Shown: positions 6,279 to 53,311, counted from the stretch's first letter. The stretch is 64,000 nucleotides of DNA from an uncultured Methanosarcinales archaeon (GCA_964550175.1 CAZJXP010000001.1:322774-386773); one strand, 5' to 3'. The notes: generated from the letters alone by a model not told the origin. Translations and numbers: made by a program.

Positions 6279-7964
6279 TCACAGCCCCAAGCTTTCGATC
6301 AACAGATTCGCGTCGAACTTCTTCAGGTCGTCGTAGTTCTGGCCCGTGCCGAGATACAAAATTGGTTTTTTCGTGACGTAACTGACGCTGATTGCCGCGC
6401 CGCCCTTTTCGTCGATGTCCGCCTTGCTGAGGATGATGCCGTTGATGCCGACGGCTTCGTCGAACTGCTGCGCTTGTTGAACGCAGTCGTTGCCCGTGAT
6501 GGATTCGCCGATGAACAGAATCAAGTCAGGCTTCGCGACGCGGACAATCTTCTTCATCTCGTCGATGAGGTTGATGTTGGAGTGCAATCGTCCGGCCGTG
6601 TCGATGAGGACGACGTCCTTGTTCGCGGCTTCGGCGTGCTTGATGGCGTCGAACGCGACGGCGGCCGGGTCGGAACCGTAATCGTGCTTGATTAATTTGA
6701 GATTGAGCTTGTCGGCGTGCGTTTGCAATTGGTCGATTGCGGCCGCTCGGAACGTGTCGGCCGCGGCCATGACGACGCCGAGCTTCTCGTTCTGCAGCAT
6801 ATGCGCGAATTTGGCGATGGTTGTCGTCTTTCCGGAGCCGTTGATGCCGACAAAGCAGATGACGTACGGCTTCTTAGCTTTGATGTTCGCGAACAAATCA
6901 ATCTGCTCGACGTCGAACAATGAGCTTAATGACTGTTTCAATGTTGAAAGGATCGTTGATTCAATGCTGCCGCGCGGGATGGGCTGGTCGACGAGAACGG
7001 TTTTCAAGTCGACCTTTATCTTTTCGATGACTTCCACCGCGACGTTGTTTTCAAGCAGCGCGACCTCGACGTCCCAGAACAAATCCTCGAACTGCTGCTC
7101 GGAGATTTTCTTTGTCGTGACGGCCTGCTTCAGTTTCGCGAAGAATCCTTTCTTTTCTTCCGGCTTTTCGATAGGTTTGACCGGGATCGGTCGCGAGCGC
7201 TCGACAGGAATGTAGCGTTTCTCAGGCTTTGCCGGCTGCGCTTTGCTCTCCCCGGCAGATTTTGTCGCGTCAGGAGTATCATATTTCGGCTCTTGCTCGA
7301 CGACCTGAACATCCTTGATTCGCTCCAAAACTTTTTTCGGCTCGTAGTCCTCGGGCTCGCCTTTCTTTTCTTTTTCCTTCTTAGGCTCGGCGGGCTCGAT
7401 CGGCTCGAACAACTGCTCGATCTGCGGGCGCTCGTCCTCGATGTGGTCGTGGATCTTGATTTTTCGTAACGGTGAGCCTTCGACTTCGATTTCCGATTCT
7501 TCGATGACGACGTCCTCGACTTGCTCGGGCTCGGGAATCGGCTCCTTCTTTTCTTCCGCGACCTCTTCCGGCTTGACGAACTTTTCCTTCAACCGCTTGA
7601 AGAAACCTTTTTTCTCTGGTTGGATCGTGATGGATGGCGGAGAATTTTCTGACGGCTCACTGCTAATATCAGGCGGGGTTTCAACGGCAGGGGACTCCGA
7701 GTCACTCTTTACCGGCACGCTTTGTTCCGTCGTTTCAGCAGTTTCGTCAGTCGAGTCTTCAACCTCTGATGAACTTCCGATCGGGGCGGCAAAAAGTTCT
7801 GATGGGGTTTCAACGGCAGGGGATTCGGCGGGCTCTTCTTCCGGCTCAGAAATCTCGAGCGGCTCTTCCGAGGATTCTACCACTTCCTCCTTCGCGGTCT
7901 CTTCCGCCTTCTTAGAAAACGAGGATAATGCGCCCTTCAGTTTGTCCTTCAAGAATTTGAACAT
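6279..7964 (-). CDS. ftsY: Signal recognition particle receptor FtsY with a long acidic low-complexity N-terminal extension
   Basis: C-terminal NG domain with GINGSGKTTT, DTAGR and SKADIDEKGG motifs; N-terminal ~260 aa is E/P/S-rich. Confidence 0.9.
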   Translation of the reverse strand: MFKFLKDKLKGALSSFSKKAEETAKEEVVESSEEPLEISEPEEEPAESPAVETPSELFAAPIGSSSEVEDSTDETAETTEQSVPVKSDSESPAVETPPDISSEPSENSPPSITIQPEKKGFFKRLKEKFVKPEEVAEEKKEPIPEPEQVEDVVIEESEIEVEGSPLRKIKIHDHIEDERPQIEQLFEPIEPAEPKKEKEKKGEPEDYEPKKVLERIKDVQVVEQEPKYDTPDATKSAGESKAQPAKPEKRYIPVERSRPIPVKPIEKPEEKKGFFAKLKQAVTTKKISEQQFEDLFWDVEVALLENNVAVEVIEKIKVDLKTVLVDQPIPRGSIESTILSTLKQSLSSLFDVEQIDLFANIKAKKPYVICFVGINGSGKTTTIAKFAHMLQNEKLGVVMAAADTFRAAAIDQLQTHADKLNLKLIKHDYGSDPAAVAFDAIKHAEAANKDVVLIDTAGRLHSNINLIDEMKKIVRVAKPDLILFIGESITGNDCVQQAQQFDEAVGINGIILSKADIDEKGGAAISVSYVTKKPILYLGTGQNYDDLKKFDANLLIESLGL

Positions 7965-10336: not shown

Positions 10337-10467
10337 TGGACCCGGACAGATTTGAACTGTCGACCGGTGGTGTGCCTAGGTTAGCCTACCTGTGCAGACG
10401 TGAGTCTGCGTTGTGATGAGCAGCGCCATATAAGACCACTGCTCTAGCCGGACTGAGCTACGGGTCC
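10337..10467 (-). tRNA. tRNA-Ile-like (anticodon TAT) with a 56-nt intron at canonical position 37/38
   Basis: Reverse complement gives acceptor GGACCCG/CGGGTCC, D-arm GCTCAGTCCGGCTAGAGC, anticodon stem GTGGT...ACCAC interrupted by an insert after CTTATA, T-arm GACAGTTCAAATCTGTC. Confidence 0.7.
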
Positions 10468-16829: not shown

Positions 16830-19800
16830 TTATATGGTGGAGGACTTGGTTCTCGACGCCGATGAAGGACGTGGCAAGCTGCGATAAGCTTCGGCGACCC
16901 GCACGCAGGGGTTGACCCGGAGATCTCCGAATAGGACTTCCTTTTAAGACCGCAAGGTCGGGGAACGGGGGGAATTGAAACGTCTTAGTACCCCCAGGAA
17001 AAGAAACCAATAGGGATACGGTGAGTAAGAGCGACTGAAAACCGCATACGACAAACCGAATCTTGCATTGAAAGATGCAAGGCATGTGGTGTGATAAGGA
17101 CTTTCATTTAGGCTACGCTCGATACGACAAAGTCGCCTGGAACGGCGCGCCAGAGAGGGTGATAGCCCCGTCGTCAGTGTTGAGAGAGCTGAGAAAGTAT
17201 CCTGAGTACTGTCCCTCGGAAATGGGGCAGGAAGATGGGAGGCATCTACTTCCAATCGTAAACACGTCGAGAGTCCGATAGCGTACAAGTACCGTGAGGG
17301 AAAGTTGAAAAGAACCCGTGACAGGGAGTTCAAAGAGCCTGAAACCATATAAGGATAGTCCTCTAATGCTTCAAGGAGTGTTAGAGTCCGTTGCGAATAA
17401 TGTGCCAGGGAGTGCCGGGGATGTGGCGAGGGTAAGCAGATCATCTGCGGACCCGTAGCGAAAGCGACACGCACGCAGGTAACAAGGTGCGCGGTATGAA
17501 AGTGCCGGAAGTCACATCATGGCAACCCGAAACCACTCGATCTAATCCTGAGCAAGATGAAGCGGGGGTAAAACCCCGTGGAGGTCTGAAGAGGTTCTGG
17601 ATGCATCCGTTCTTCTGACTTGGGATTAGGGGTGAAAAGCCAATCGAGAGTGGTGATAGCTGGTTCCTTCCGAAATTGGCCATAGTCAAGCCTCAAGCGA
17701 GATGGCGTTCGCTGTAGAGTCACAGATTGGGGGCTTAGGCTTCGAAAGAGGTCGGCCCTTTGTCTAACTCCGAATACGAGCGCGTCGTAGACCTTGGGAG
17801 TCGGGGCGTCGGCGTAAGGTTGATGTCCAAGAGGGGAACAACCCAGACATACATTAAGGTCCCTAAGTACCAATTAAGTGTGAAAGGCGAAAGGTTGTTC
17901 ATTGCCACAGACAGCGAGGAGGTAGGCTTAGAAGCAGCCACCCTTTAAAAAGTGCGTAACAGCTCACTCGTCAAGGCAATGAGTACCTACAATGGACGGG
18001 GCTAAATTGGTCACCGATATGTATGGCATCTCAAAAGGATGCGGTAGGAAGGCGTTCGGTGCGCGTAGAACGTGGCTTGAAAGGGCCACGGGAGCGCTTC
18101 GAAATGAGAATCCTGGCGTGAGTAGGATCATAGTGCTGTGAGAATCAGCATCGCTGAAAGGGCAAGGGTTTCTAGACACTGTCGATCAGTCTAGAGTTAG
18201 TCGGTCTTAACTGCGACCCCCACTGGGTCGTGTGAGGAAAAGGCAACAGGTTAATATTCCTGTACCATGTGTGTATGTGCGGCAACGCAAGCGTCATTAC
18301 CGACGCTTCGGGGTCAGTCGACACGAACTGTCGTTCGTGCTAAAGAAGATACAACCGAGGAGTATCGTCATGATGAGAATCGGTTGAACACTCTGAATGG
18401 TTCCGCTTTGCGGAATTCGGCCTATCCCTGGAGCCCGTGAAAAGGGAAAGACGAAAAATCACATATGTCCGTACCCAGAACCAGCACTGGTGCCCCTAGG
18501 TGAGAAGCCTCAAGTGTGAAGGAGACAACCCGGGCGAGGGAACTCGGCCAATTGGTCCCGTGCCTTCGGTAGAAGGGATCCCTGCGGCCGTGTGCATATG
18601 CATGGCGGCGGCAGGGCGCAGAGACCAGGGGTTCCCGACTGTTTAACAAAAACACAACTTCGTGCGAAGCTGAAAAGCTGTGTATACGAGGTGACGTCTG
18701 CCCAGTGCAGGTATCCGAATACCCTTTTCAAGGGGTTAAAGGACCTGTAAACGGCGGAAGTAACTATAACTTTCTTAAGGTGGCATTTACGACTGCCTTA
18801 GTGGGGTGTGAGACCCCTTCGATTGATTCACGCGCGCCGTGAACGACGAAAAAATCTGGCTATATGCTGGAACATCTGTTGCTGTTTTCGAATTTTAAAA
18901 CGAAAACAGCGTCAACGCAAGTTGATATCCGGTTGCATTGGTAACGGTGCAAACGCAGACAATCAGCAGGAAAGGCCGAGGCGACTTTTCGGAGTGTAAT
19001 AACTCCGAAGCGAAGCTTCGGAATCCTCAGAGACTGCATGCCAAGACAGCATTTTATGGAGAGCTCATCACTCACCGACATCAGCAATGATGGAAATGTT
19101 GAAGATACAGTCCGAGCTTAACAGCGATGTTAAGAACGTGACAGAAATGATCATGTCGTCAAGCAATTGACGTAACAAAAATGAGCGAAATGCCTTGTCA
19201 TTTGATTGGTGACGTGCATGAAGGGCGCAACGAGGTCCCCACTGTCCCCGCCCGGAATCCTCTGAAACCCCCTTCTGGTGCAAAGGCCAGAGAAGTCCAG
19301 TAGGAAGTGAAGACCCCGTGAAACTTTACTGTAGTCTGTCGCTGTGACGTGGAGATCATTGCATAGGGTATGCAGGAGCCGTTATGCGGAAACTTTCGGG
19401 TTTCCGATAGGCACCGATGTAACACTGCACTCTGATTTCCGCGCCGCTCACCCGATTGGGGACACCGATTGACGGACAGTTCGGCTGGGGTGGCACGCCG
19501 ATGAAAACATATCATCGGCGCCCAAAGGTTGGCTCAGACGGGTCAGAAATCCGTCGTAGCGTGCAAGGGCATAAGCCAGCCTGATTGGAATCCGATCAAG
19601 AACGATTCCAAACGCGAAAGCGTGGCCTAGCGAACCTCACTGCGCCTCTTGATGAGGCCGTGGGATGACCGAAAAGTTACTCCGGGGATAACAGAGTTGT
19701 CGCGCCTGAGAGTTCACATCGACGGCGCGGCTTGCTACATCGACGTCGGCTCTTCCTCTCCTAGGTGTGCAGTAGCATCTAAGGGTACGGGAGTTCACCG

Positions 19801-20105
19801 GTTAAAAGGGATCGTTAGCTGGGTTCACAACGCTGTGAGGCAGTTGGTATACGATCCACTGGACTTGCATAAACTTCTGAGGGGAAGGAAGACATAGTAC
19901 GAGAGGAACTGTCTTTCGTGGCCTCTAGTCTACCGGTTATCTGACAAGGTATTATGCCGGGCAGCCACGCCATATGGGATAAACACTGAAAGCATCTAAG
20001 TGTGAAACCCACCTCGAAAAGAGAAGAAAGGACGCTCATAGAAGATGAGTTCGATGGAAACGGGGTGTACGTGTTTAGGTAACGAGACACTCAGCCTGCG
20101 TTCCC
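16830..20105 (+). rRNA. rrl: 23S ribosomal RNA, interrupted by a ~402-nt intron
   Basis: GATGAAGGACGTGGCAAGCTGCGATAAGC near the 5' end; conserved GTAACTATAAC, CCCCACTGTCCC and GACCCCGTGAAACTTTACTG blocks; GAAAGCATCTAAG near the 3' end. End coordinates approximate (+/-20 nt). Confidence 0.9.
18782..19183 (+). other. Intron within 23S rRNA, between CTTAAGGT and AGCGAAAT (domain IV)
   Basis: The universally contiguous CTTAAGGT|AGCGAAATTCCTTGTC is split by ~402 nt with no 23S similarity. No LAGLIDADG-like ORF inside (only 63-75 aa junk ORFs). Confidence 0.75.
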
Positions 20106-20338
20106 CAAAAGTCCGTTATTACTTTATTTTATGTTTTGTAGGATGATCATTCAGGCAACTTTATGATCAATGCGCCTTCGGCGCTCTCATGCACGGTCGT
20201 TTCTTTTTTTTATTCTAGTTTTATTTCATTTTCAATGGATTCAGCGTGAGCTGGATTCTGAAAAATCATTTTTGAATGGAGCTAGCGAGAGCCATATTAT
20301 GACTGAACAGTTAATGAAAAAGCAATAAATAGAGTTAA

Positions 20339-21130
20339 TTAATTACTAGGAATAATTATTGTTCCAGAAATATCTCCTTTTTTGATTTCTTCAGAACTTA
20401 TAAGCATCACACGTTTATTTGTTTCAGTTAAGAAACTTTGACATTTATTAATAAGCTCGGTTGTTTTTGCTAACAAATCAGCATTTTGAGATTGAACTAC
20501 ATTCAAATCAAGATATTGCAATTCTGCTAATGTTATTCGACTATCATGTCTATCTTTATTCATGAACAAAGAAACCACTTCGTGCGTATGTCCAAAATCA
20601 TCATATTCTACATGTTTAAATTTAAACAAGGATGGTTTTGTGTTTATCATCCCCATGATTTTAAATTTTGCAAAGTTAAATATTTGTTTAGCATTTTCTT
20701 TTAGCAACGGGTCTTCCGATTTAATATGTTTAATGGCTCTAAACCAACCCCCCTCATACTGACAAACTGGGTCAATTTGAGTTATTACTGTATTGGGAGT
20801 TAGAGTTAATTCATCTGCTTTCAAAAATAAGCAACATAAGGAAGAGCAGCAATGAACTGGCACGTATACTTGAAAGGAGGATAGATTTTCTCTCAATATG
20901 TACGCCATAATAATTGCTGTTTTAAAATCGCCACCCTCACCATGAAGTATGACCGTTAAATTTTTACTAATGCTTGACTGCATAAAATCCATAAGCCATA
21001 TTTCATCATTTTCTTGGATTTCCTTATGATGAGCATAAATTAAAAAAATAAATTCGCGACCAAGGATTAACTTTATTTCTGCCTTAACTGAATAAATTTC
21101 TTTATTCAATAAGTCTAATTTATCTTGCAT
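20339..21130 (-). CDS. ClpP/S49-fold (crotonase-like peptidase fold) protein in the AT-rich island
   Basis: Segment LHGEGGDFKTAIIMAYIL...VYVPVHCCSSLCCLFLKAD...TPNTVITQIDPV parallels ClpP INSPGG...MAASMG...PNS.IMIHQP. Cys-rich where ClpP has the catalytic Ser region. AT-rich codon usage. Confidence 0.4.
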   Translation of the reverse strand: MQDKLDLLNKEIYSVKAEIKLILGREFIFLIYAHHKEIQENDEIWLMDFMQSSISKNLTVILHGEGGDFKTAIIMAYILRENLSSFQVYVPVHCCSSLCCLFLKADELTLTPNTVITQIDPVCQYEGGWFRAIKHIKSEDPLLKENAKQIFNFAKFKIMGMINTKPSLFKFKHVEYDDFGHTHEVVSLFMNKDRHDSRITLAELQYLDLNVVQSQNADLLAKTTELINKCQSFLTETNKRVMLISSEEIKKGDISGTIIIPSN

Positions 21131-21285
21131 ATTAACCTAAACGTGTCACTACATATATATTTAATGCTGCATTACAAATGATATCTAAATAACATACAAT
21201 TAATATACAGGAAGCTTTATAAATCAATTAAACCGTATAAAGTCATAATAACAGACGTACCTATCGGCAGCTGTGGAGGTGCTAT

Positions 21286-21498
21286 ATGGGCAAACAAATA
21301 AATATTCGTCTTTCGGATAAAGCAGTGAAAGAATTAGAGGACTTAAGAACTCGATTAAATTTAAGTTCGATTTCTGATGTGATTCGTGGTAGCATAGCTC
21401 TTCAAAAATTCATTGAAGATGAAAAAAGTAAGAATAAAGAAATTGTTCTAAAAGATAAACGAACTAACAAAGAACAAGTTATTGTAACCCTTAGGTAA
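21286..21498 (+). CDS. Small ribbon-helix-helix-like DNA-binding protein (70 aa)
   Basis: N-terminal beta-strand/helix pattern INIRLSDKAVKELEDLRTRL typical of RHH (CopG/Arc). Confidence 0.4.
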   Translation: MGKQINIRLSDKAVKELEDLRTRLNLSSISDVIRGSIALQKFIEDEKSKNKEIVLKDKRTNKEQVIVTLR

Positions 21499-21503
21499 AC
21501 CTA

Positions 21504-21767
21504 ATGCCAAAAGAAGAGTTTATTGAAATTACGGAAATTACTGACGGAAAAAAAACGCAGCACAAGTATCCAAATTTTGAACCAGAATTAAGTGTGAAAC
21601 CTCAAACAACAAAATGGTTTTTTTACACATTTAATTGGATATCACTATTGTTCTGTTTAACTTTTATTATTTTGATATTTTTGGAAAAACCGTTGCCAGA
21701 ATACTTCATTGGATTTATAGGTTCCATAATCGGATATTTCATTGCAAAAAGACCATATGAACTATAA
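21504..21767 (+). CDS. Small 2-TM membrane protein (87 aa)
   Basis: Two hydrophobic helices; 5-nt gap after the RHH gene suggests an operon. Confidence 0.4.
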   Translation: MPKEEFIEITEITDGKKTQHKYPNFEPELSVKPQTTKWFFYTFNWISLLFCLTFIILIFLEKPLPEYFIGFIGSIIGYFIAKRPYEL

Positions 21768-21785
21768 TTTACGTACGAGTTATCT

Positions 21786-22313
21786 ATGCAATTCAAGAAA
21801 AAGGGAATCATTCATGTTTCCATTCAAGATATCATGCTTGAAGACGGAACTACTATTGGCGTATTTGAAGGAAATCGTGGCGCGAATCCCGATCACGATA
21901 TTCTCATTAAATATCAAGAAAAAGCAAAGCGGTTACGCACGCCAAAACACGTTCATTGGGTTATTGACTTGCTAATTAAAAAACAGCATAACCCCGAACT
22001 AACGATTAAGTTCATGACTTATTTACGAAATATGTACGATCGTGTTGAAAAGTTCACCAGTAAAGAAGATAGAGCAAAATGTATTTTGAAAGAAACGACA
22101 AAAGTAAAATTAGCGCCATTTAAGGAGCTCGATAAGTATGGTGAGTATAAAGTAGAATTCGTTGGTCATCTTATTGAACTCATGATTAAGATGGAAAAGA
22201 ACACCCCGCCAGACAAACCTGCTCGCGTGTTCAGAGAATTAATTGATGCTATGATTCAAGAAAAAGACATATTTTCAATCGTGAGCAGAGCAACTCAAAT
22301 CGGCGGCCGTTAA
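21786..22313 (+). CDS. Hypothetical protein (175 aa), convergent and tail-overlapping with the Dam methyltransferase
   Basis: AT-rich ORF; stop overlaps the MTase stop region. Candidate partner of the MTase, which is speculation. Confidence 0.4.
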   Translation: MQFKKKGIIHVSIQDIMLEDGTTIGVFEGNRGANPDHDILIKYQEKAKRLRTPKHVHWVIDLLIKKQHNPELTIKFMTYLRNMYDRVEKFTSKEDRAKCILKETTKVKLAPFKELDKYGEYKVEFVGHLIELMIKMEKNTPPDKPARVFRELIDAMIQEKDIFSIVSRATQIGGR

Positions 22314-23197
22314 TAATTTGTCACAACAACTTCATTAATCAGTCCGCGACCGTCACTTCTGCAATTAATCATGCGTTTTGCCTGAACCGTATGAATATTG
22401 TATTTTGAGTAGAGTTCTCGAATAAACGTCGTGTCGCTATTGCTTAACATACAGAGAACGCCCTTTTTATCTAGCTTCTTGAAGACGTCAGCGAGTGCGA
22501 GCTGTTCCTTGTCAAGGAAGTCTCCTTTTGCATATTTTGTGAAGCTGGGTTTTCTGTCAAGCGGATAGTACGGCGGATCGAAATAGACGAAATCTCCTTT
22601 CTGACATTTATCAAGAACAACTTCAAAACTGCCCGTTGAGGTCTTAAATTGCTTCAATATCTTGTTTAATTCCTGAATATTGTCTTTTTGAATTATGTTT
22701 GGATTTTTGTACTTGCCACAGGGCACGTTAAATTGTCCTTTGCTATTGACACGGTGCAAACCGTTAAAACATGTTCTATTGAGATAAACAAAACGTGCGG
22801 CACGTTCTTCCTTTGATAACGTCTTCACATCAAGCGCACGTACTTTGTAAAAATGAGCTGCTGAATGCTTTTTCTTATGTTCTGTCAACAATTTTGTTAA
22901 ACGTGTAGGATTGTCACGAACAACTTCATATGTGTCAATAAGCTCAGAATTAACATCCGAGATGAACAGTTTCTTTTCCGGAAATTGTTTCGCTAGATGG
23001 AACGCGACAATTGCACTTCCTGCGAACGGCTCAAAGTAGTTGTTGAACGATTCGGGAAAGAGAGGAATAAACTGAGCAAGAAGCTGCCGTTTGCCACCTG
23101 CCCATTTTACAATGGTTGGCGCAGTGATAACTTCTTTAACGATCGCAGTTTGCAACGGAACACCCTCTTTAATGAAGGAAGATATTGCGAGCTGCAT
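22310..23197 (-). CDS. DNA adenine methyltransferase (Dam / D12 class N6-adenine MTase)
   Basis: Motif I FEPFAGSA and motif IV DPPY; overall Dam-like length and order. Confidence 0.85.
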   Translation of the reverse strand: MQLAISSFIKEGVPLQTAIVKEVITAPTIVKWAGGKRQLLAQFIPLFPESFNNYFEPFAGSAIVAFHLAKQFPEKKLFISDVNSELIDTYEVVRDNPTRLTKLLTEHKKKHSAAHFYKVRALDVKTLSKEERAARFVYLNRTCFNGLHRVNSKGQFNVPCGKYKNPNIIQKDNIQELNKILKQFKTSTGSFEVVLDKCQKGDFVYFDPPYYPLDRKPSFTKYAKGDFLDKEQLALADVFKKLDKKGVLCMLSNSDTTFIRELYSKYNIHTVQAKRMINCRSDGRGLINEVVVTNY

Positions 23198-23285
23198 ATT
23201 TTAAGCTTTGCATAAGTAGTTAAATTGGCTACGAGCCCATGTCCAGTGACAAACATTTTTAACTAACCTATAGATTATATAATCA

Positions 23286-38388: not shown

Positions 38389-39090
38389 ATGGAACTATCC
38401 CAGAAGCCCAAGAATGTAACAGTCATAGCAGGTTTTCCCGGCTTCGGACTTGTCGGCACTGTGGCAACTGGTTTTCTCGTCGACCATCTGGACGCCGAAC
38501 GCATCGGAAACCACTGGTTCGAGGAGCTGCCCGCGACTATCGCGCTGCACGACGGCAAAATCGTCGATCCCGTCGGCATCTACTACTCCAAGAAATACAA
38601 TCTCGTCATCGTCCACAGCATCGCGAATGCTACTGGCGTCGAATGGCTAGCTTCTGATTTAGTATTGCAAGTGTGCAAGGAACTTAGCGCGAAGGAACTG
38701 ATAGCGATCGAAGGCGTCGGCAGCCAACGCATGGAGCTGCAGCGCGCGTTTTACTTCTCTACCGACGGTAAAAATGAGAAAGCGTTAGCGAAAATCGGCG
38801 TCGAGCCCTTGAAGGAAGGCATCATCGTCGGCGTCACGAGCTCACTTTTGCTCAAAGCGAAACTACCAATCACTTGTTTGTTCTCTGAAACTCATACGAA
38901 TCTGCCGGACTCCAAGTCAGCCGCGAAAGTGGTTGAAGTCTTGGACAAGTATCTTGGCTTAAACGTTGACTATCTGCCACTCCTGCAGCAGGCAGCCGAG
39001 TTCGAAGCAAAGGTCAAGACCATCCTTCAAAGCCAGGCCAAGACCCAAACGGACTCCGAAACCAAGAAGAATTTGAACTACATCACGTAA
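38389..39090 (+). CDS. Proteasome assembly chaperone family protein (PAC2/PbaA-like)
   Basis: VIAGFPGFGLVGTVATGFLV N-terminal signature of the archaeal PAC2 family. Confidence 0.7.
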   Translation: MELSQKPKNVTVIAGFPGFGLVGTVATGFLVDHLDAERIGNHWFEELPATIALHDGKIVDPVGIYYSKKYNLVIVHSIANATGVEWLASDLVLQVCKELSAKELIAIEGVGSQRMELQRAFYFSTDGKNEKALAKIGVEPLKEGIIVGVTSSLLLKAKLPITCLFSETHTNLPDSKSAAKVVEVLDKYLGLNVDYLPLLQQAAEFEAKVKTILQSQAKTQTDSETKKNLNYIT

Positions 39091-39270
39091 TTCTGGCATT
39101 ATGCTCACTTTTAGCCTTGTTTGATACTTGATGATGGTTTGTTCTGAGGGTTAATTCTCCCTTTTTTCGACCTTTGAGCTAGTGCCTAATGGGAATAGTT
39201 GAGTTTGAGACTGGTTGGCTACCTGATAGCTCACAATTCTAGCTCACCCAAGCAAGTCTGCCCAAGCCAA

Positions 39271-39365
39271 CTCTTTACCGCCACGATTGGACGCGTTCGG
39301 GCATCGACCGTTTTTGTGATCCAGCCAACTGCTCAAAATCTGCCGGGGACGACGGCAAAAATGAC
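39271..39365. repeat. Intergenic palindromic element copy (right end degenerate)
   Basis: CTCTTTACCGCCACGATTGG ... CTCAAAATCTGCCGGGGACGACGGCAAAAATG. Confidence 0.6.
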
Positions 39366-40510
39366 GAACAGGCGACTGCGACCTCCCCAAACTGCCCTTC
39401 GGCACCCAAAAACTCACTCACAAACTCCCCCTCGAATGCGCCGTTACCTTGCAAAATCAAACGAACTCTCACTTTTTGCCTTCAAATGATTTATTTTAAA
39501 TATGCAAGGTAATTACTCGAGCATGCCTTGAATAACTAGAATATCGAGGTTCAACAAGATAAATAACAATAGTTATTTTCTGTCCATTAGTTTAGACTTA
39601 CTCATTATCAGATAGTTATTTTAAAAACTATTTCTTATGCAACAATAATTCTTTTAAATGAATTTGTCACTAAAAATTAGGTAGCAAAGTCAATCAATTT
39701 TGTTCTTCAATTGCGAATTTTGAAATGCAATTGAGTGAATTGTCGATTTTCTCGCCTGATTGAGCGCGGATCAAAAATGACCTCAATTGCACCAAAACAA
39801 GGGTTCAATTAATGACTTTTTTCCTGACGCTAGCGCGCGAAAACAGTCCAAAAATAGACCGCACAACGCGCCTAAAACCTCTTGCGCGCGAGTTTTCAAC
39901 CGGCCGCGATAAACCCTCAAACAAACAAAAATCTCGCGTGAAATCGCCCCTGTTTTCGCCATAAAAACCGCAAAACTATCGTCGTAACCATTGAAACCAA
40001 CCCCATTTTCAAACCTGTCAGCGATAATCCCGAATTTTCTTCATTTGTGCGAATAAATGGATCTTTTCGTGTGGCAGCAGGCTTCGGCGCGACGACCCCC
40101 GTGACCTCGTCTGCAGGGATTAAGGAGGAAAGTCCGGCAGAATGGCGACTGGGACGGGATTTGGCACGACCGGACGGGTTTCGCGCGAACACGACAGTTT
40201 AGGGGTTTGTCAAAAGTGTCGGCAAAATCCCGACGACACGAATTGAGCCCCTCAATGCCACCAAAACCAATCATCCAGCCTAGTGTGGCCCTGGTGTTTG
40301 TACCTTTTACGCAAAAAAGTGGCTAGAATCGGCTGTAAACGCGTCGCGTGAAGGACTTGGATTGATGGTTACCCCCCATTTGCGCACCTGCGCAATAACT
40401 TCTGCATTTTGATTAAAACTTTTAATTCGGATGTAACCCCCGAAACCTGTCAGGGATTGTTCCGAAAGGTTTAAATCACACCGCATGCATCCAAAATCAG
40501 CAAAAAACAG

Positions 40511-41023
40511 GTGACCATCGTGAAAATCCAGCTTGAACACGCCGAATCTCTCCCTGACGCAAGTGTCGAAGAGCTCGCAAAAACGCTTCTTGCTCGATTC
40601 GGACTGCTGCCACGCAAGAAAGACGGCTCGGCCGCAATGCACAAACTGCTACTCGAACTCTACGAACGCAAGAAGGTCGCGAACCGGGACCGGAAACCCG
40701 AATCTGCCGTGATTCCCGTCGAGCTCATGGGACACCTGGCCGGCATCAAGCGCCAAACGATGTACGAGTATCTGCACCGCTGGCTTGACCTTTCCATTCT
40801 CAAAAAGACTTCCTTCGTCGCGGACGGCAAAGTCGTGATTGGGTATGAGCTGAACGGCGCGAATCTTGAAGGAGCTTTTAGGAAAGCAGAAACCTCAATC
40901 CGCAACCACCTCGAAACGAGCCTAAAACTCGTCGACACGCTGCAGAACGAAGTCAAGAAGGACAAGCTCAGGCAAGGGTTCAAGGAAACTGCTGAGACGC
41001 CCGCAATCCCCCCATCTCCGTAA
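40511..41023 (+). CDS. Winged-helix DNA-binding protein with C-terminal helix (170 aa)
   Basis: wHTH segment LAGIKRQTMYEYLHRWLDLSILKK...VIGYELN. Confidence 0.5.
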   Translation: MTIVKIQLEHAESLPDASVEELAKTLLARFGLLPRKKDGSAAMHKLLLELYERKKVANRDRKPESAVIPVELMGHLAGIKRQTMYEYLHRWLDLSILKKTSFVADGKVVIGYELNGANLEGAFRKAETSIRNHLETSLKLVDTLQNEVKKDKLRQGFKETAETPAIPPSP

Positions 41024-41138
41024 ACCTTTTTACCGGCACGTTTGGTTCCGTTTCGGCCTCAATTCTAATGACGATAAAGCCAACGCGACAAAATCTGCCG
41101 GGGAACGGAGAAACCAGGGAAGAAATGGCGGTAAAAAG
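41015..41138. repeat. Intergenic palindromic element copy
   Basis: CTTTTTACCGGCACGTTTGG ... CAAAATCTGCCGGGGAACGG ... GGCGGTAAAAAG. Confidence 0.7.
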
Positions 41139-41153
41139 CCAACGAAAATTCAG

Positions 41154-41705
41154 TTAAGCACTATGCTGATCCCAGTAGGTAAGCTTGGTGTCCAGTTTGA
41201 CGATATTTTGCTTCGCCTGAGCTTGGCGGAACTGCTTGTCCAGGCCCAAAAACGCGTTGCCGCTGGAGTACTTTTTCTCGACCGGAACTCCCTTCGAAAT
41301 CAATGCCGTGATGGAGCGTGAAACGATCTCAACGGACGTCGTCAATTTGCGCGCCAATTGGTGGTACGTGACGAACGGCGTCGTCTCGGTGAGCGTGTAG
41401 AGCGCGAAGAAGGCTTCTTTTTCCGGGCCGGTCAGCGGCTGGACCTTGAATTCCGGCATCACTTCCGCAGGCTTTCCGTGGCGGACGAGCATCGTCAGCT
41501 CATCCAGCCGTTCCTGCAGCTTGTCGAGCCGCGAATTCAGCTGGTTCAGGAGCTCGAAATTCGACTCGATTTCGCTCGTGTTTTCATTCAGCGCGGAACG
41601 GTGGTCGTCAAGCTGGTCCTGGATGCTCAAAAACGTCTTGTCAAGATCTTGTCGAAGGTCATCGTGCTCGCGACGGAACAATGTTTGCTGTCCCTCATTT
41701 TCCAC
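41154..41705 (-). CDS. Coiled-coil plus C-terminal wHTH regulator (paralog A)
   Basis: N-terminal coiled coil, C-terminal TTPFVTYHQLARKL...SRSITALISKGV HTH. Confidence 0.5.
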   Translation of the reverse strand: MENEGQQTLFRREHDDLRQDLDKTFLSIQDQLDDHRSALNENTSEIESNFELLNQLNSRLDKLQERLDELTMLVRHGKPAEVMPEFKVQPLTGPEKEAFFALYTLTETTPFVTYHQLARKLTTSVEIVSRSITALISKGVPVEKKYSSGNAFLGLDKQFRQAQAKQNIVKLDTKLTYWDQHSA

Positions 41706-41776
41706 TGATTACCACCCAACGATTTTGTGATTTTGAGTCGCTCTTAAGCTGATTTCGATACTGCAACAGCGAGGTT

Positions 41777-42529
41777 TCAGCGCTCATGTCGCACCTTTTT
41801 CGCACGGGCGCCGCCCCACAAATACCGCTTTTCCTTGCCCTCATCAACGACCGTGATGTCCTGGGTTCCTTCGATTTCCTCAAGCAACCGGTAGAAGCTG
41901 CTCTTCGAGCACAGGCCCTGCTCGTGCACGATGCTTTCGCGCAACGCGACGCCGGAAACCTGACCATGCATTCGAATGAGATTGAAGATGCTTTCCTTGA
42001 TCAAATCTTTGCTATTTCTGACTGCCATTTTGATGACTTTTTCTTGCAGCGCGGAGCCCATTTCCGGCGGCGTCCTGAGACTGCTGGGAATGACAGTTTG
42101 TCGACGGACATTCCCAAGTTCTGAGACCTGGGAATGAAGCTGTTTGAGCTGCGCGAACACGTCAATTTGCTGCGTTTCGATCGCGGACATTTGCGGCGCG
42201 ATCCTGCCGAGCGCATCAATGCGATGCTCGATCTCGCGCACGCGCTCAAGCACCGGTTCGACCGAATAATGCGCATCAACCAAGGCCTTCACGTCCTCTT
42301 TCGTGAGCCGCGGAAGCGAAGAAATCACGTGCGATTGGTCGTCCAACTCGCGCTGCAGGCGCTGGTTCTCCGCCGCAAGGTAATTCACCCATTGCGACAG
42401 CAGGCCCATGTCCTCTTTTGCCGACGAGAAGGACGTCCTTACGTTCTCCTCGACCTGGCGGATCTCCTCTTTTGTGGCCAAGCCAAACATGCGGTTGGCA
42501 ATCGCCAACCCATTTAAAAACCTTTTCAT
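41777..42529 (-). CDS. Coiled-coil plus C-terminal wHTH regulator (paralog B), preceded by an operator-like repeat array
   Basis: Same architecture as 41154..41705; start codon sits directly downstream of the TCCCAGGAC repeat cluster. Confidence 0.5.
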   Translation of the reverse strand: MKRFLNGLAIANRMFGLATKEEIRQVEENVRTSFSSAKEDMGLLSQWVNYLAAENQRLQRELDDQSHVISSLPRLTKEDVKALVDAHYSVEPVLERVREIEHRIDALGRIAPQMSAIETQQIDVFAQLKQLHSQVSELGNVRRQTVIPSSLRTPPEMGSALQEKVIKMAVRNSKDLIKESIFNLIRMHGQVSGVALRESIVHEQGLCSKSSFYRLLEEIEGTQDITVVDEGKEKRYLWGGARAKKVRHER

Positions 42530-42680
42530 TCCCTGGGATGGTCCCAGGACATTCCCAGGACCGTCCCAGGACTATGCTGGGAATGAGCACAAGCTAAAAC
42601 GAGTGTAAAATACATTTAAACGTGATTCTCATTCCCAATTGGGACGGTCTCAGGACCATCCCAGGACTATCCTGGGACTA
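42528..42680. promoter_or_regulatory. Operator-like array of about 8 YCCCAGGAC / GTCCTGGGR sites symmetrically flanking an AT-rich TATA-like spacer, immediately upstream of the 41777..42529 wHTH gene
   Basis: TCCCTGGGA, TCCCAGGAC x3, CTGGGAATGAG | spacer TAAAATACATTTAAAC | CTCATTCCCA, TCTCAGGACC, ATCCCAGGAC, ATCCTGGGAC. Confidence 0.6.
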
Positions 42681-43261
42681 TAGTGAAAGGAAATATATAA
42701 ATAGTAGTTGCGACAAACAACCGAATTAGTTCAGGATCAAGCGGATCCGGAACGGCCAAAATCGTTGGTTTTTAGGTTCCCCCCGGTTCCTGAAAATCAG
42801 CAAAAGGTGGCTAAAACAGGCAAAACTCCTGGTGCCTACCAACGCCAGGAAAAAGAGCCAAAATCAAGCGAAATCAGCCGGGTTGTGAGCAAAATCAAAT
42901 AGCTGCCACGAATTCCGGCAAAAGAGCAGAAAGCAAGGGAAAAAGAGGGTGAAAAGTGATTCGTGCGAGGGATTGTGAAGGAATACCCATAGCCAGTAGA
43001 GTATGCCATAATCCCTCCCCGTAGAGCAAAAAGTGAGAGTTCAGAAGGTGGTTTTTGAGCCTTCATCCCAGGAGATCCCGGGAAAGAGTGAGGCTCAAAC
43101 CCCCTTTGAACTGCAGAAGCCACCCTGTGAGCCAGAGTGAGCCCTGCAAGGACCCGTCAGAAGGCTGAAACAATGCCAAACCAAGGGCGTTGTGAAGCAA
43201 AAGTGAGCGTGAGACTGTGAAAGAGCAAGCTTTATTAGGCACTAGTCGGAAGCAGGGTTGA

Positions 43262-43954
43262 ATGGCCCCTGGACACACCACCCGCTTCTATATAGAGACG
43301 CTTCCGACCGAAGGCATCGTCAAGATGCCCAAGGAAGCGTCGCGACACGCGAAAGCCTTGCGCCTGAAGGACGGAGACCTCATCCAAGTGTTCGATGGCA
43401 CGACCGAGTACACCGCAAGGCTGCTCACGAACCACGAACTCGAGATAGTGGCTAAAAGTGAGCACACGAGCCATTCTGGTGCCCAAGTCACCCTCGCAAT
43501 AGCTTTTCCCAAAGGACCACGAGTGGACTGGCTCGTTGAAAAGGCAACCGAGCTTGGCGTGCACGAGATTATCCCTCTTATTACGAAACGCACCGTCGTG
43601 AACCCGCGCGACACGAAAGTCGAACGACTGCAAAAGCTCGCGATCACGGCGTGCGAGCAATGCGGACGCAGCACGATTCCCAAGATCTCGCTGCCCATTG
43701 CCGTCGACAAACTCCTCGCGCGAACGAACGAGTTCGATGCCTGCTTTGTTGCGGATGGATCCGGAAACAAACTCTCACTTTCAAAATCCGCAAAGAAAAT
43801 CCTCGCCCTCATCGGACCCGAAGGCGGATTCTCCGACGAGGAAATCACAAAAGCAAAGAGTACTGGCTGCCACATAATCTCACTTGGAACAACGACGCTT
43901 CGCACCGAGACTGCTGGACTCACGATACTGGCCCAGCTCAACGCACTCCTATGA
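43262..43954 (+). CDS. rsmE: 16S rRNA (uracil-N3)-methyltransferase RsmE
   Basis: PUA-like N-terminus, SPOUT C-terminus with IGPEGGFS motif. Confidence 0.8.
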   Translation: MAPGHTTRFYIETLPTEGIVKMPKEASRHAKALRLKDGDLIQVFDGTTEYTARLLTNHELEIVAKSEHTSHSGAQVTLAIAFPKGPRVDWLVEKATELGVHEIIPLITKRTVVNPRDTKVERLQKLAITACEQCGRSTIPKISLPIAVDKLLARTNEFDACFVADGSGNKLSLSKSAKKILALIGPEGGFSDEEITKAKSTGCHIISLGTTTLRTETAGLTILAQLNALL

Positions 43955-43959
43955 TCAAC

Positions 43960-44042
43960 CTTTTTACCGGCAATATTGGTAGCGTCGTTACGTCCGTTAC
44001 TATCACGACGACAACGCGACGTCCAATCGGGGCGGTAAAAAG
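43960..44042. repeat. Intergenic palindromic element copy (most symmetric: 20-bp terminal inverted repeats)
   Basis: CTTTTTACCGGCAATATTGG ... CCAATCGGGGCGGTAAAAAG. Confidence 0.75.
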
Positions 44043-53209: not shown

Positions 53210-53234
53210 AATATCTACGTTTACGTTGCTCCCC

Positions 53235-53311
53235 CCGGCAGATTTTGAGTCGTTAGTTATATCGTAAATAAAATTCTGAACGTAACGACGTCCAAACATG
53301 CCGGTAAAAAG
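53235..53311. repeat. Intergenic palindromic element copy (inverted orientation relative to most others)
   Basis: CCGGCAGATTTTGAG ... CGTAACGACG ... CCAAACATGCCGGTAAAAAG. Confidence 0.7.

Follow-up and report, generated by a model that had tools for sequence, protein, structure and literature searches.

Oriented sequence boxes flank a conserved set of three DNA-binding-protein genes in Woesearchaeota

The presence of a perfect inverted repeat on either side of three genes raises the question of whether they belong to a mobile element, a replication origin or a regulatory region of the chromosome. The repeat lies in a stretch of 64,000 nucleotides (the window), which is part of a Woesearchaeota (DPANN archaea) chromosome: GCAAAAAGTGAGAGTTC occurs on the plus strand at 43026-43042 and its exact reverse complement at 39463-39479, as the first-pass annotation had reported, and no further copies were found in the window at up to three mismatches. 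The claim that such a pair is very unlikely by chance was overstated. When the window was simulated 300 times with an order-2 Markov model and non-overlapping perfect 17-nt inverted repeats were counted, 50 of the 300 simulated windows (17%) had at least one. The real window has 10 perfect inverted repeats of at least 17 nt, 8 of which derive from dispersed intergenic repeat families. Taken alone, the 17-nt pair is weak evidence. Its core word, AAAAGTGAG, occurs seven times in the window, every time inside 38848-43781, so that the pair is simply the best-matching one of a local motif family.

Every related genome that spans the segment has it, with its two gene-free stretches, in an unchanged place and orientation. 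The layout, shared by at least 16 related genomes, starts with PAC2, minus-strand copies of a short box (box A, AAAAGTGAGAGTT, of which both arms of the repeat are copies) and an AT-rich tract of 250-300 bp; it goes on with p170, p183, p250 and TGGGAC operator arrays, and ends with plus-strand copies of box A, rsmE or another methyltransferase gene, and rpoL. Between the two gaps, p170 reads rightwards and p183 and p250 leftwards; beyond the second gap, the rsmE or MTS methyltransferase gene and rpoL both read rightwards. Full synteny is seen in the window and in the related loci L004, L005, L032 and L038-L048, and synteny minus p170 in L011, L012, L016, L022 and L030. The orientation of the cassette relative to PAC2 and rpoL is identical in 16 out of 16 genomes. 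This locus is fixed in the chromosome and is a putative control region, in which oriented boxes flank the same three genes in many Woesearchaeota.

This conservation across genomes is why we regard the inverted repeat as real. A chance match in A-rich non-coding DNA would agree with the frequency of such repeats in the simulations, but genomes with as little as 41-81% identity between their PAC2 proteins have the same box at the same two places and in the same orientations, which rules out this explanation; we give it a negligible probability. The arms are the two copies of box A nearest to the putative promoters, both near the lineage consensus GGCAAAAAGTGAGAGTTC. Left and right copies of one genome are alike at 10.2 of 20 positions, against 9.6 of 20 between genomes (p = 0.04). 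The arms fit the lineage consensus rather than a recent duplication, with a likeness within genomes that is only marginally higher.

On the left side, the arm itself (A1-left, 39463-39479, minus strand) points to PAC2, and its minus-strand homologues adjoin the AT-rich tract in 16 genomes. A second copy (A2-left, 39102-39116, minus strand, GGCTAAAAGTGAGCA) lies 14 nt past the PAC2 stop codon. Between the two is box B-left (39182-39189, minus strand, TTAGGCAC), which has the same placement in relatives. A box A-like copy within PAC2 (38833-38852, minus strand) is specific to the window, being absent from PAC2 of L004, L005 and L032, and probably reflects the coding sequence for SSLLL. On the right side, the arm (A1-right, 43026-43042, plus strand) is followed by A2-right (43196-43215, plus strand) and, on the sense strand of rsmE (43262-43954, plus strand, encoding a PUA domain and a PF04452 methyltransferase domain), by A3 (43450-43464). 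A2-left and A3 form a nested pair matching at 15/15 positions, and the PAC2-internal copy and A2-right another, matching at 17/20. The third, partial copy mentioned by the first-pass annotation does exist in rsmE on the minus strand, at 43769-43781 rather than 43761-43771.

The copies of box A are strongly polarised. Within 1.8 kb to the right of p250, the 16 genomes have 65 plus-strand copies and 1 minus-strand copy; on the left side they have 32 minus-strand and 10 plus-strand copies, and in the genomes examined in detail most of these plus-strand copies are on that side of the AT-rich tract which faces p170. The three-gene cassette has no copy in 27.9 kb and the remaining sequence 7 copies in 203 kb (16 genomes each), the box being about 40-70-fold rarer outside the flanking regions. 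There is a single cluster per locus, as judged from the 64-kb window and from the 10-20 kb of available flank at about 40 loci. The spacers between boxes vary in both sequence and length. Inside rsmE, the sites of the boxes are not homologous and fall in two reading frames, the same position encoding K-S-E in the clade of the window and E-K-V-R in L038 and L048; selection thus acts on the nucleotides, not on the amino acids. Clusters also adjoin PAC2 at loci lacking p170, p183 and p250 within 10 kb (L006, L009, L013-L015, L017-L020, L027, L028 and L035). In L009 and L017 the order is a TATA element, 16 nt, box A, 13 nt and the ATG.

The three genes encode proteins with predicted DNA-binding folds. 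The first, p170 (40511-41023, plus strand), probably starts at the GTG at 40520, with a Shine-Dalgarno sequence GGTGA at 40510-40514; in L001 a gene of 167 aa is called. Its AF2 model (pLDDT 89.7) has a winged-helix domain and a long C-terminal helix (residues 119-160), and its best Foldseek matches are MarR, the winged helix of TFE-alpha and Lrs14/AbfR2 (E about 4e-3). It has at least 400 homologues, of which the 120 listed share 65-89% identity, making it far more conserved than typical accessory regulators. The second, p183 (41154-41705, minus strand), has an N-terminal coiled coil and a C-terminal HTH; it matches HTH_11 at E = 6e-5 (23.2 bits, under the 25-bit cutoff), and the HTH of GerE, DtxR and Lrs14 in profile searches with E of 0.01-0.1. 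Its neighbourhood to p250 is conserved. The third, p250 (41777-42529, minus strand), is modelled (AF2, pLDDT 78.8) as two long helices and a C-terminal winged helix, matches generic winged-helix folds in Foldseek (e.g., cullin WHB, Fur, BlaI), and has at least 199 homologues which, where named, are mostly from Woesearchaeota. Searches of Pfam and NCBIfam gave no HTH-family matches for p170 or p250, and for p250 only sub-threshold matches of coiled-coil type; the models nevertheless identify both as winged-helix proteins. The proposed paralogy of p183 and p250 is not detectable (BLASTP E = 1; hhalign probability 0.9%), even if both are built alike, with helices first and an HTH or winged helix at the C-terminus.

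The terminal inverted repeats of IS, MITE or invertible elements likewise form a perfect inverted pair bounding a few kilobases, so the segment might be the remnant of such an element. Some Woesearchaeota loci have XerA-like or integrase-like genes between the minus- and plus-strand boxes (L011, L014-L016, L018, L019, L027 and L035), and L011 carries a full inverted site, AACTCTCACTTTT-CTTA-AAAAAGTGAGGGTT. Yet all 16 genomes that span the locus agree in its position and orientation, an inverted cassette being found in none of them, and the arms match the lineage consensus, not specifically each other. No recombinase, transposase or integrase domains were identified in the three ORFs with Pfam and NCBIfam, and a target-site duplication is likewise missing: the sequences just outside the arms (atcaaac and agaaggt) contain no direct repeat. 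The proteins are lineage-wide, one of them at the high identity given above for p170, and no viral, plasmid or phage relatives emerged from the checks that were run: p170 and p250 against IMG/VR, p170 against PLSDB and p250 against GenBank phages (the last two being single checks). We rejected this explanation, which is very improbable given the fixed synteny and orientation and the lack of a recombinase, of a target duplication and of such relatives. The first-pass annotation had made its own version of it, an integrated plasmid or virus-like remnant, depend on the segment not being conserved in place among relatives, and it is syntenic in every genome that covers it.

The non-coding DNA has its own conserved anatomy. 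As the first-pass annotation had noted, there is no credible ORF between the PAC2 stop (39090) and p170, and the AT-rich tract (39480-39780) is real: its GC content goes down to 0.22, with values of 0.22-0.29 at about 39490-39700. The position of this tract beside A1-left is conserved, its sequence is not. It is kept in 6 genomes with a GC content of 0.14-0.29 (0.14-0.25 in L004, L005, L038, L042 and L032, the last a genome of 56% GC). A TATA-like or palindrome-derived element (39493-39507, minus strand, TTGCATATTTAAAAT; TTTC(T/A)ATAT(A/T)GAAAAT in relatives) precedes the A-run of A1-left by 15 nt. On the other side, the A-run of A1-right is preceded at the same distance by the TATA-like GCCATAAT (43005-43012, plus strand), a spacing kept in L004, L005 and L032. 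In the GC-richer genomes, a TATA-like hexamer is found 15-17 nt upstream of the first box A on both sides, with an AT peak at -30 to -16. The predicted core promoter of rsmE (43226-43245, plus strand, AAGCTTTA-TTAGGCAC-TAG) combines a TATA-like element with box B. It is invariant in four genomes. As the ATG follows after about 28 nt, the mRNA is probably leaderless.

Two sets of operator-like repeats are associated with the protein genes. The conserved non-coding block upstream of p170 (40010-40510, plus strand) contains five boxes of the form G(T/C)C(A/G)GGGAT(A/T)(A/T)T in the same orientation (40016-40034, 40112-40125, 40152-40165, 40217-40235 and 40448-40466), the first and last of which abut TATA-like elements. 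It also includes a T-run (40303-40308) and the p170 TATA box TTTAAAT (40470-40476). The block is about 73% identical to those of L004 and L005, matches L032 in part, and is also found in L038 and L040. Upstream of p250, two clusters of TGGGA(C/A) repeats with about 11-bp phasing (42530-42682) flank an AT-rich promoter-like stretch. The operator-like array described earlier is thereby confirmed (TCCCAGGAC or TGGGAC at 42534-42586 and 42629-42681, with 11-nt spacing), and the same arrays are found in L004, L011, L012, L022, L030, L038, L040 and L042. These clusters resemble parC/ParR of plasmid R1 in their phasing and in their placement around a TATA-like promoter; in iteron-type arrays such geometry is typical of cooperative binding of an autoregulator to one face of the DNA, which by analogy may apply here. 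This locus differs from parC/ParR in being chromosomal, lineage-wide and devoid of an adjacent partition ATPase, and in having coiled-coil and winged-helix proteins instead of ribbon-helix-helix ones.

We tentatively favour, at a little under an even chance, a lineage-specific regulatory locus of the chromosome, whose outward-facing promoters would share an operator or initially transcribed box. The p170 gene and the p250-p183 pair, encoded between two long non-coding regions, would each be controlled through their own operator-like repeats: the G(T/C)C(A/G)GGGAT boxes that abut TATA elements upstream of p170, and the 11-bp-phased TGGGAC repeats to either side of the p250 promoter. Further out, again on both sides, putative outward-facing promoters would, judging from the spacing, produce transcripts that start at a shared box A of 13-17 nt or inside it. 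More sense-strand copies of this box lie downstream and reach into rsmE or into the methyltransferase gene that takes its place. The box at the start site and the downstream copies might be read by a winged-helix/coiled-coil protein encoded in the locus or by another sequence-specific factor. As a result, two units transcribed outward and away from each other would be regulated together: on the right an rRNA-methyltransferase operon, on the left a unit that is non-coding or varies by lineage.

This regulatory reading is consistent with the fixed synteny, the polarity counts and the nucleotide-level selection in rsmE, with the TATA-like context of box A, the conserved operator-like arrays and the winged-helix folds, and with a 17-mer that is close to the lineage consensus and not recently duplicated. 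Among the closest known systems are archaeal winged-helix regulators of the MarR/Lrs14 (AbfR2) type, with operators that overlap BRE/TATA or the start site: p170 has a winged helix and a long C-terminal helix of the dimerising type, its own promoter has TATA elements adjoined by repeated boxes, and box A sits just downstream of TATA, a common position for repressor binding in archaea. On the other hand, p170 belongs to no Pfam or NCBIfam family and its structural matches are only at the E-value given above. Box A, asymmetric, irregularly spaced, multi-copy, polar and reaching into coding sequence, differs from the operators of this family; its asymmetry and irregular spacing are unusual for dimeric MarR/Lrs14-like regulators. 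The left unit usually faces the 3' end of a convergent gene, with no obvious target, and clusters occur by PAC2 in genomes without the three genes within 10 kb. Also, DNA of about 20% GC over 250-300 bp exceeds the needs of a promoter, and the distance from palindrome to box A varies from 6 to 30 nt in AT-rich relatives.

Alternatively, box A might be a polar site acting at the level of DNA in a chromosome-maintenance locus. This could be a replication origin with ORB-like repeats and an AT-rich unwinding element, or a fork trap or centromere-like site at which the neighbouring winged-helix/coiled-coil proteins act. Winged-helix initiators or terminators are known from other organisms, such as WhiP at oriC3 of Sulfolobus and RTP in Bacillus. 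As in archaeal oriC (ORB/mini-ORB), short asymmetric repeats flip polarity across genomes at a position-conserved tract whose length and GC content suit an unwinding element, and in L038 minus- and plus-strand copies flank it directly. The cluster is the only one seen in the window and per related locus, and gene orientation diverges modestly around it (57% of left-flank coding sequence on the minus strand, 74% of right-flank on the plus strand). In the window, however, the nearest plus-strand copy is 3.5 kb from the tract, with three genes parting the two arms, and the repeats continue outward for 1 kb, into genes. Box A is also unlike the canonical ORB dyad TCCA...GGAAA. The cumulative GC skew does not turn at 39-43 kb, and the GC3 skew shows a side effect of -0.007 ± 0.018 (227 ORFs, 16 genomes), weak evidence as the flanks are short. 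The rRNA operon (14.7-20.1 kb) is transcribed toward the locus. Finally, neither the 64-kb window nor any of 43 loci has an Orc1/Cdc6 gene, which nearly all members of the phylum carry in a single copy (bioRxiv 10.64898/2026.05.13.725050). The origin-like region suggested at first thus fits in part of its anatomy, the oriented repeats that across genomes flip at the AT-rich tract, but its defining companions, Orc1/Cdc6 beside the repeats and a skew switch, were not found, and we regard a chromosome-maintenance site as rather improbable.

Box A might instead act in transcripts, as AAAAGUGAG repeats that bind an RNA-binding factor or as a non-template-strand signal during elongation; the repeats would lie in the methyltransferase mRNA, within its leader and early coding sequence, and in a non-coding RNA made from the left promoter. 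Possible models are the Csr/Rsm-type mRNA leaders with their decoy sRNAs and, for elongation, the ops site. Box A is nearly always on the sense strand of local transcription (65:1 on the right), the left plus-strand copies being upstream of p170 on its own sense strand. Copies run into ORFs in any available frame, and one is often 13-20 nt before a start codon (L009, L017, L038, L011). Against this, the box has no conserved secondary-structure context, its spacers are variable, the neighbouring proteins have DNA-binding folds, and transcription of the left cluster is itself only predicted. Nor was any Rfam family matched: there were three non-significant matches in 39100-43400 (E of at least 1.6), none in 40000-40520 at E up to 10, and nothing at the gathering threshold in 9 related loci. 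No covariance model of a known ncRNA, RNase P RNA included, matched the locus. The p170 upstream block folds with RNAalifold at -16 kcal/mol over 284 columns, with double changes in 4 pairs only, and minimum free energy z-scores of +1.39 and +0.17 give no signal of stability. An RNA-level role is unlikely, if less so than one in chromosome maintenance. Among the three identities initially offered, the ncRNA-rich regulatory island came closest, given the conserved non-coding boxes, the promoters and the three DNA-binding proteins, though the searches and folding gave no sign of a structured ncRNA.

One shared word is internal to the segment and does not mark its boundaries, as had been thought. 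AAAATCAGCAAAA does occur twice, at 42793-42805 in an A-rich spacer with AAAATCA-type words (42700-42990, plus strand), and at 40493-40505, where it forms the leader of p170, directly upstream of its GGTGA Shine-Dalgarno sequence.

The segment between PAC2 and rsmE had been delimited by a perfect 17-nt inverted pair, GCAAAAAGTGAGAGTTC at 43026-43042 and its exact reverse complement at 39463-39479. Both arms are present as described, and the window holds no third copy of this word when up to three mismatches are allowed. The pair is thus a real observation, but one that the first-pass annotation mis-weighted as very improbable by chance. We counted non-overlapping perfect 17-nt inverted pairs in 300 order-2 Markov simulations of the window, and 50 of these held such a pair, which makes the argument statistically weaker. 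The real window contains ten, eight of which come from dispersed intergenic repeat families, namely CTTTTTACCG(G/C)CNNG(A/T)TTGG (23 copies) and AAAATCTGCCGGGG. The first of these families explains most perfect inverted repeats of at least 17 nt in the window. For genome scans, the lesson is that a lone perfect inverted repeat does not count as evidence for mobility where the genome is rich in dispersed repeats between genes; the question was settled by comparative synteny.

The archaeal rRNA operon and the tRNAs of the window, the relatives of its PAC2 and p250 (nearly all labelled Woesearchaeota or Nanoarchaeota), and the exact p250 protein on a 969-kb NCBI contig together identify this DNA as chromosomal and from a DPANN archaeon. 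We compared 35 loci around PAC2 relatives and further loci around relatives of p250 and p170. In all contigs spanning the region the order is constant: PAC2(+), a gap of 1-2 kb, p170(+) (40511-41023 in the window), p183(-) (41154-41705), p250(-) (41777-42529), a gap of 0.6-1.4 kb, and a methyltransferase gene (rsmE, or a COG2263/MTS-type gene in other lineages), followed by rpoL, a gene for a conserved 167-aa protein, and uppS. More distant genomes keep p183, p250, the gap, and rpoL, and in these p170 is undetected at its usual place or integrase-like genes are inserted. Orientation is kept together with order, and the cassette is never inverted. The segment has no recombinase or transposase domain and its arms no target duplication; searches found no relatives of p170 or p250 in IMG/VR, of p170 in PLSDB, or of p250 among GenBank phages. 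The proposed remnant of a plasmid or virus-like element, for which the first-pass annotation had itself named synteny with relatives as the arbiter, is therefore refuted.

Some Woesearchaeota have rsmE (PF04452) in the slot between p250 and rpoL and others have the COG2263/MTS-type methyltransferase (PF05175), which looks like an in-place exchange. These genes lie at 43262-43954 in the window, at 6343-6975 in the related locus L011, and also in loci L012, L022, L029, L030, L037, L042, L045, and L047.

The two arms are the best copies of a conserved oriented box, AAAAGTGAG(A/T/G)GTT, which we call box A; in many genomes its promoter-proximal form is near GGCAAAAAGTGAGAGTTC. The core word AAAAGTGAG occurs seven times in 64 kb, always within 38848-43781, on the minus strand to the left and on the plus strand to the right. 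The one reversed exception, at 43769-43781, is the partial third copy that had been placed 10 nt too far left. Counts over 16 genomes, each oriented like the window, gave 65 plus and 1 minus copies on the right side (the first 1.8 kb past the p250 start), 32 minus and 10 plus copies in the PAC2-p170 gap, none in 27.9 kb of the p170-p183-p250 cassette, and 7 in the 203 kb of all remaining sequence. In the genomes examined in detail, most plus copies of the left gap fall on that side of an AT-rich tract which faces p170, and hence the polarity of box A flips at this tract. The tract had been noted from the window, where its GC content is indeed 0.22-0.29. Across genomes it spans 250-300 bp with a GC content of 0.14-0.25, even in a genome of 56% GC (L032), and is conserved in position and composition, not in sequence.

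Box A copies run into the first right-hand gene and are embedded on the sense strand in both methyltransferase types. Within rsmE they occupy several non-homologous positions and two reading frames, which indicates that the nucleotides are kept and not the amino acids; one and the same position reads K-S-E in the clade of the window and E-K-V-R in loci L038 and L048. The first left and first right boxes resemble each other within genomes only marginally more than between genomes. The perfect 17-mer thus reflects conservation of the consensus and not recent duplication or transposition, and concerted evolution or gene conversion between the arms was rejected on the same ground.

In the GC-richer genomes, a TATA-like hexamer precedes the first box A on each side by 15-17 nt; the corresponding elements of the window are GCCATAAT (43005-43012) and ATATTTAAAAT (39493-39503, minus strand). 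In the aggregated AT profile the peak falls at -30 to -16, and two related loci (L009 and L017) show a TATA element, 16 nt, box A, 13 nt, and an ATG ahead of a minus-strand gene. A companion element, box B (TTAGGCAC), is in the window part of AAGCTTTATTAGGCACTAG, the core promoter of rsmE, which is invariant and sits 28 nt ahead of the ATG; box B also lies between the two left box A copies. The TATA-like spacing, the AT peak, and the context of box B point to transcription units that face outward and start at box A. Box A is not a general promoter element, since no copy occurs at the window's remaining promoters, those of rRNA and ribosomal-protein genes among them. Mimicry of the 16S rRNA 3' end (the RsmE substrate region) by boxes A and B was also rejected, as local alignment scores fell within those of shuffled controls.

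The three winged-helix genes of the segment are surrounded by a non-coding architecture that is specific to the lineage and deeply conserved. Among the identities first listed for it, the mobile element falls, and a regulatory locus, with two outward promoters and downstream leaders that share box A, is the most economical explanation. Outward-facing transcription on both sides would start at box A, which would be common to both promoters and to their leaders and might be read either as DNA or as RNA. DPANN archaea, Woesearchaeota among them, have not been brought into culture, and to our knowledge almost nothing is known of their cis-regulatory DNA. The locus offers a concrete, testable system, comprising an oriented box of 13 nt whose strand polarity is near-absolute and which is under selection even within coding sequence, a positionally conserved AT-rich tract, and three unannotated winged-helix proteins always encoded beside rpoL and a gene for an rRNA methyltransferase. 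Box A, should it serve as an operator or as a leader element, would be the first lineage-wide regulon signal for Woesearchaeota.

Polar arrays of a 13-mer that flip at a conserved, unwinding-type AT tract also resemble oriC, and an origin-like region had been suggested. The locus could be a lineage-specific DNA-organising centre (an origin apart from orc1/cdc6, a fork trap, or a centromere-like site) at which p170, p183, and p250 read box A. The AT tract fits and the oriented repeats may, but the remaining evidence does not support this reading, which we consider unlikely. Searches of the window and of 43 loci found no Orc1/Cdc6-like ORF, although nearly all members of the phylum have Orc1/Cdc6, as a single copy (bioRxiv 10.64898/2026.05.13.725050). 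The cumulative GC skew shows no turn at the locus and continues straight across it. When GC3 and AT3 skew were regressed on gene strand and side (227 ORFs, 16 genomes), GC3 skew showed no side effect (-0.007 +/- 0.018) and AT3 skew a marginal one (0.041 +/- 0.017). The rRNA operon is transcribed toward the locus. The flanking genes diverge modestly, with 57% of left coding sequence on the minus and 74% of right coding sequence on the plus strand. Were box A a polar DNA site of an origin, terminator, or centromere, it would represent a new kind of archaeal chromosome-maintenance element.

The AF2 model of p170 (pLDDT 89.7) consists of a winged helix and a 40-residue C-terminal helix, and its structural matches are MarR-family proteins, the Lrs14-like AbfR2, and the wH domain of TFE-alpha (E about 4e-3). 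Its start is probably the GTG at 40520. p170 has at least 400 homologues, and the identity of the 120 listed to p170 is 65-89%, far higher than for PAC2 (41-81%) or p250 (about 30-73%) in comparable sets; it is conserved to the degree of core machinery. A likeness of its C-terminus to the RNAP alpha/Rpb11 dimerisation motif (E about 1) was treated as coincidence. p250 combines two long helices with a winged helix at its C-terminus, and p183 has a coiled coil and a weak HTH signal; the two had been called paralogues, which is unsupported, as they are not detectably paralogous.

The operator array described upstream of p250 was confirmed, with TGGGAC / TCCCAGGAC repeats at 11-nt spacing. The lineage as a whole conserves these TGGGA(C/A) repeats, which form two or three clusters with ~11-bp phasing about a TATA-like stretch and look like a cooperative autoregulatory operator. 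The word AAAATCAGCAAAA, said to be shared by the two boundaries, is present at 40493 and 42793, but the first copy is simply the leader of p170 and is followed by a GGTGA Shine-Dalgarno sequence.

The stretch from PAC2 to p170 has no credible ORF, as reported. Its block 40010-40510 is ~73% identical to loci L004 and L005, can be recognised in L038 and L040, and aligns with L032 at its ends only. The block carries five same-orientation boxes G(T/C)C(A/G)GGGAT(A/T)(A/T)T, the first and last adjoining TATA-like elements, and a T-run at 40303-40308. A ~245-nt transcript (about 40065-40308) is possible, and the block is without Rfam match, fold stability, or covariation support; the G(T/C)C(A/G)GGGAT boxes are read as putative protein-binding sites. 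RNase P RNA should exist in the lineage, since relatives encode the RNase P protein Rpr2 (L042 4200-4544). It was rejected here along with other known ncRNAs, because 521 nt of the gene-free stretch gave no Rfam match at E up to 10; nine related loci gave none either. The word GGAGGAAAGTCCGG at 40125-40138 is similar to the RNase P RNA motif CR-I, without a covariance-model match there.

An imperfect 22-nt hairpin (I12, 39726-39791) lies downstream of a conserved ATTTGTCAC-N5-TTAGGTAGCAAA element (39668-39690) on the right margin of the AT-rich tract; the region may hold a rightward promoter and a small RNA whose end would be the T6 run 39826-39832. Just past the PAC2 stop, 39107-39149(+) weakly matches the C/D-box sRNA family sR1 of Rfam (12.9 bits, E = 6), probably by chance. 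In locus L011, a ~125-nt GC-rich island within an AT-rich gap (2230-2355), whose ends form a stem and whose interior holds a long hairpin, is flanked by box A copies, has no Rfam match, and is a candidate ncRNA. Small ORFs in the gaps (after the first right box A and the left box B) are not conserved between relatives. A degraded COG2263 pseudogene in the right gap was rejected, as tblastn with the L011 methyltransferase found no match in the window at E up to 10.

In lineages where p170-p250 do not adjoin PAC2, an AT-rich stretch comes after minus-strand boxes A and B, along with a coiled-coil ORF of 60-66 aa similar to the N-terminus of p250, and a XerA-like tyrosine recombinase gene precedes a plus-strand box A (L018 10940-11140 and 12884-13720; L035 975-1160; also L019, L027, L014, and L015).

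The TTTTTACCG repeats (D2, I1, I6, I9) were rejected as part of the locus because they belong to an intergenic family that occurs genome-wide and has 23 members in the window. The CTTTTTACCG element (e.g., 41027-41046(+), 41118-41137(-), 43961-43980(+), 44022-44041(-), 26323(+)/26406(-), 28630(+)/28713(-)) usually starts 10-20 nt past a stop codon, with a T-run in sense orientation, often in convergent pairs 80-110 nt apart, and is probably a terminator or hairpin element. The word AAAATCTGCCGGGG(A) lies at 39333-39348(+) and 41083-41104(+), and as reverse complement at 7249-7270 and 53233-53249, with a 22-nt perfect inverted repeat between 7249 and 41083. Directly downstream of the rRNA operon, an AT-rich island (20000-23200; GC 0.31-0.38 vs ~0.52 for the window) with a Dam-like N6-adenine methyltransferase ORF (22310-23197(-)) and neighbouring ORFs is probably a horizontally acquired restriction-modification cassette. 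The 23S rRNA gene contains a group I intron (18772-19134; Rfam RF00028, 52 bits), and its LSU match spans 3316 nt vs 2987 nt for the model. A tRNA gene with a long intron lies at 10337-10467(-) (Rfam 54.5 bits) and was missed by ARAGORN.
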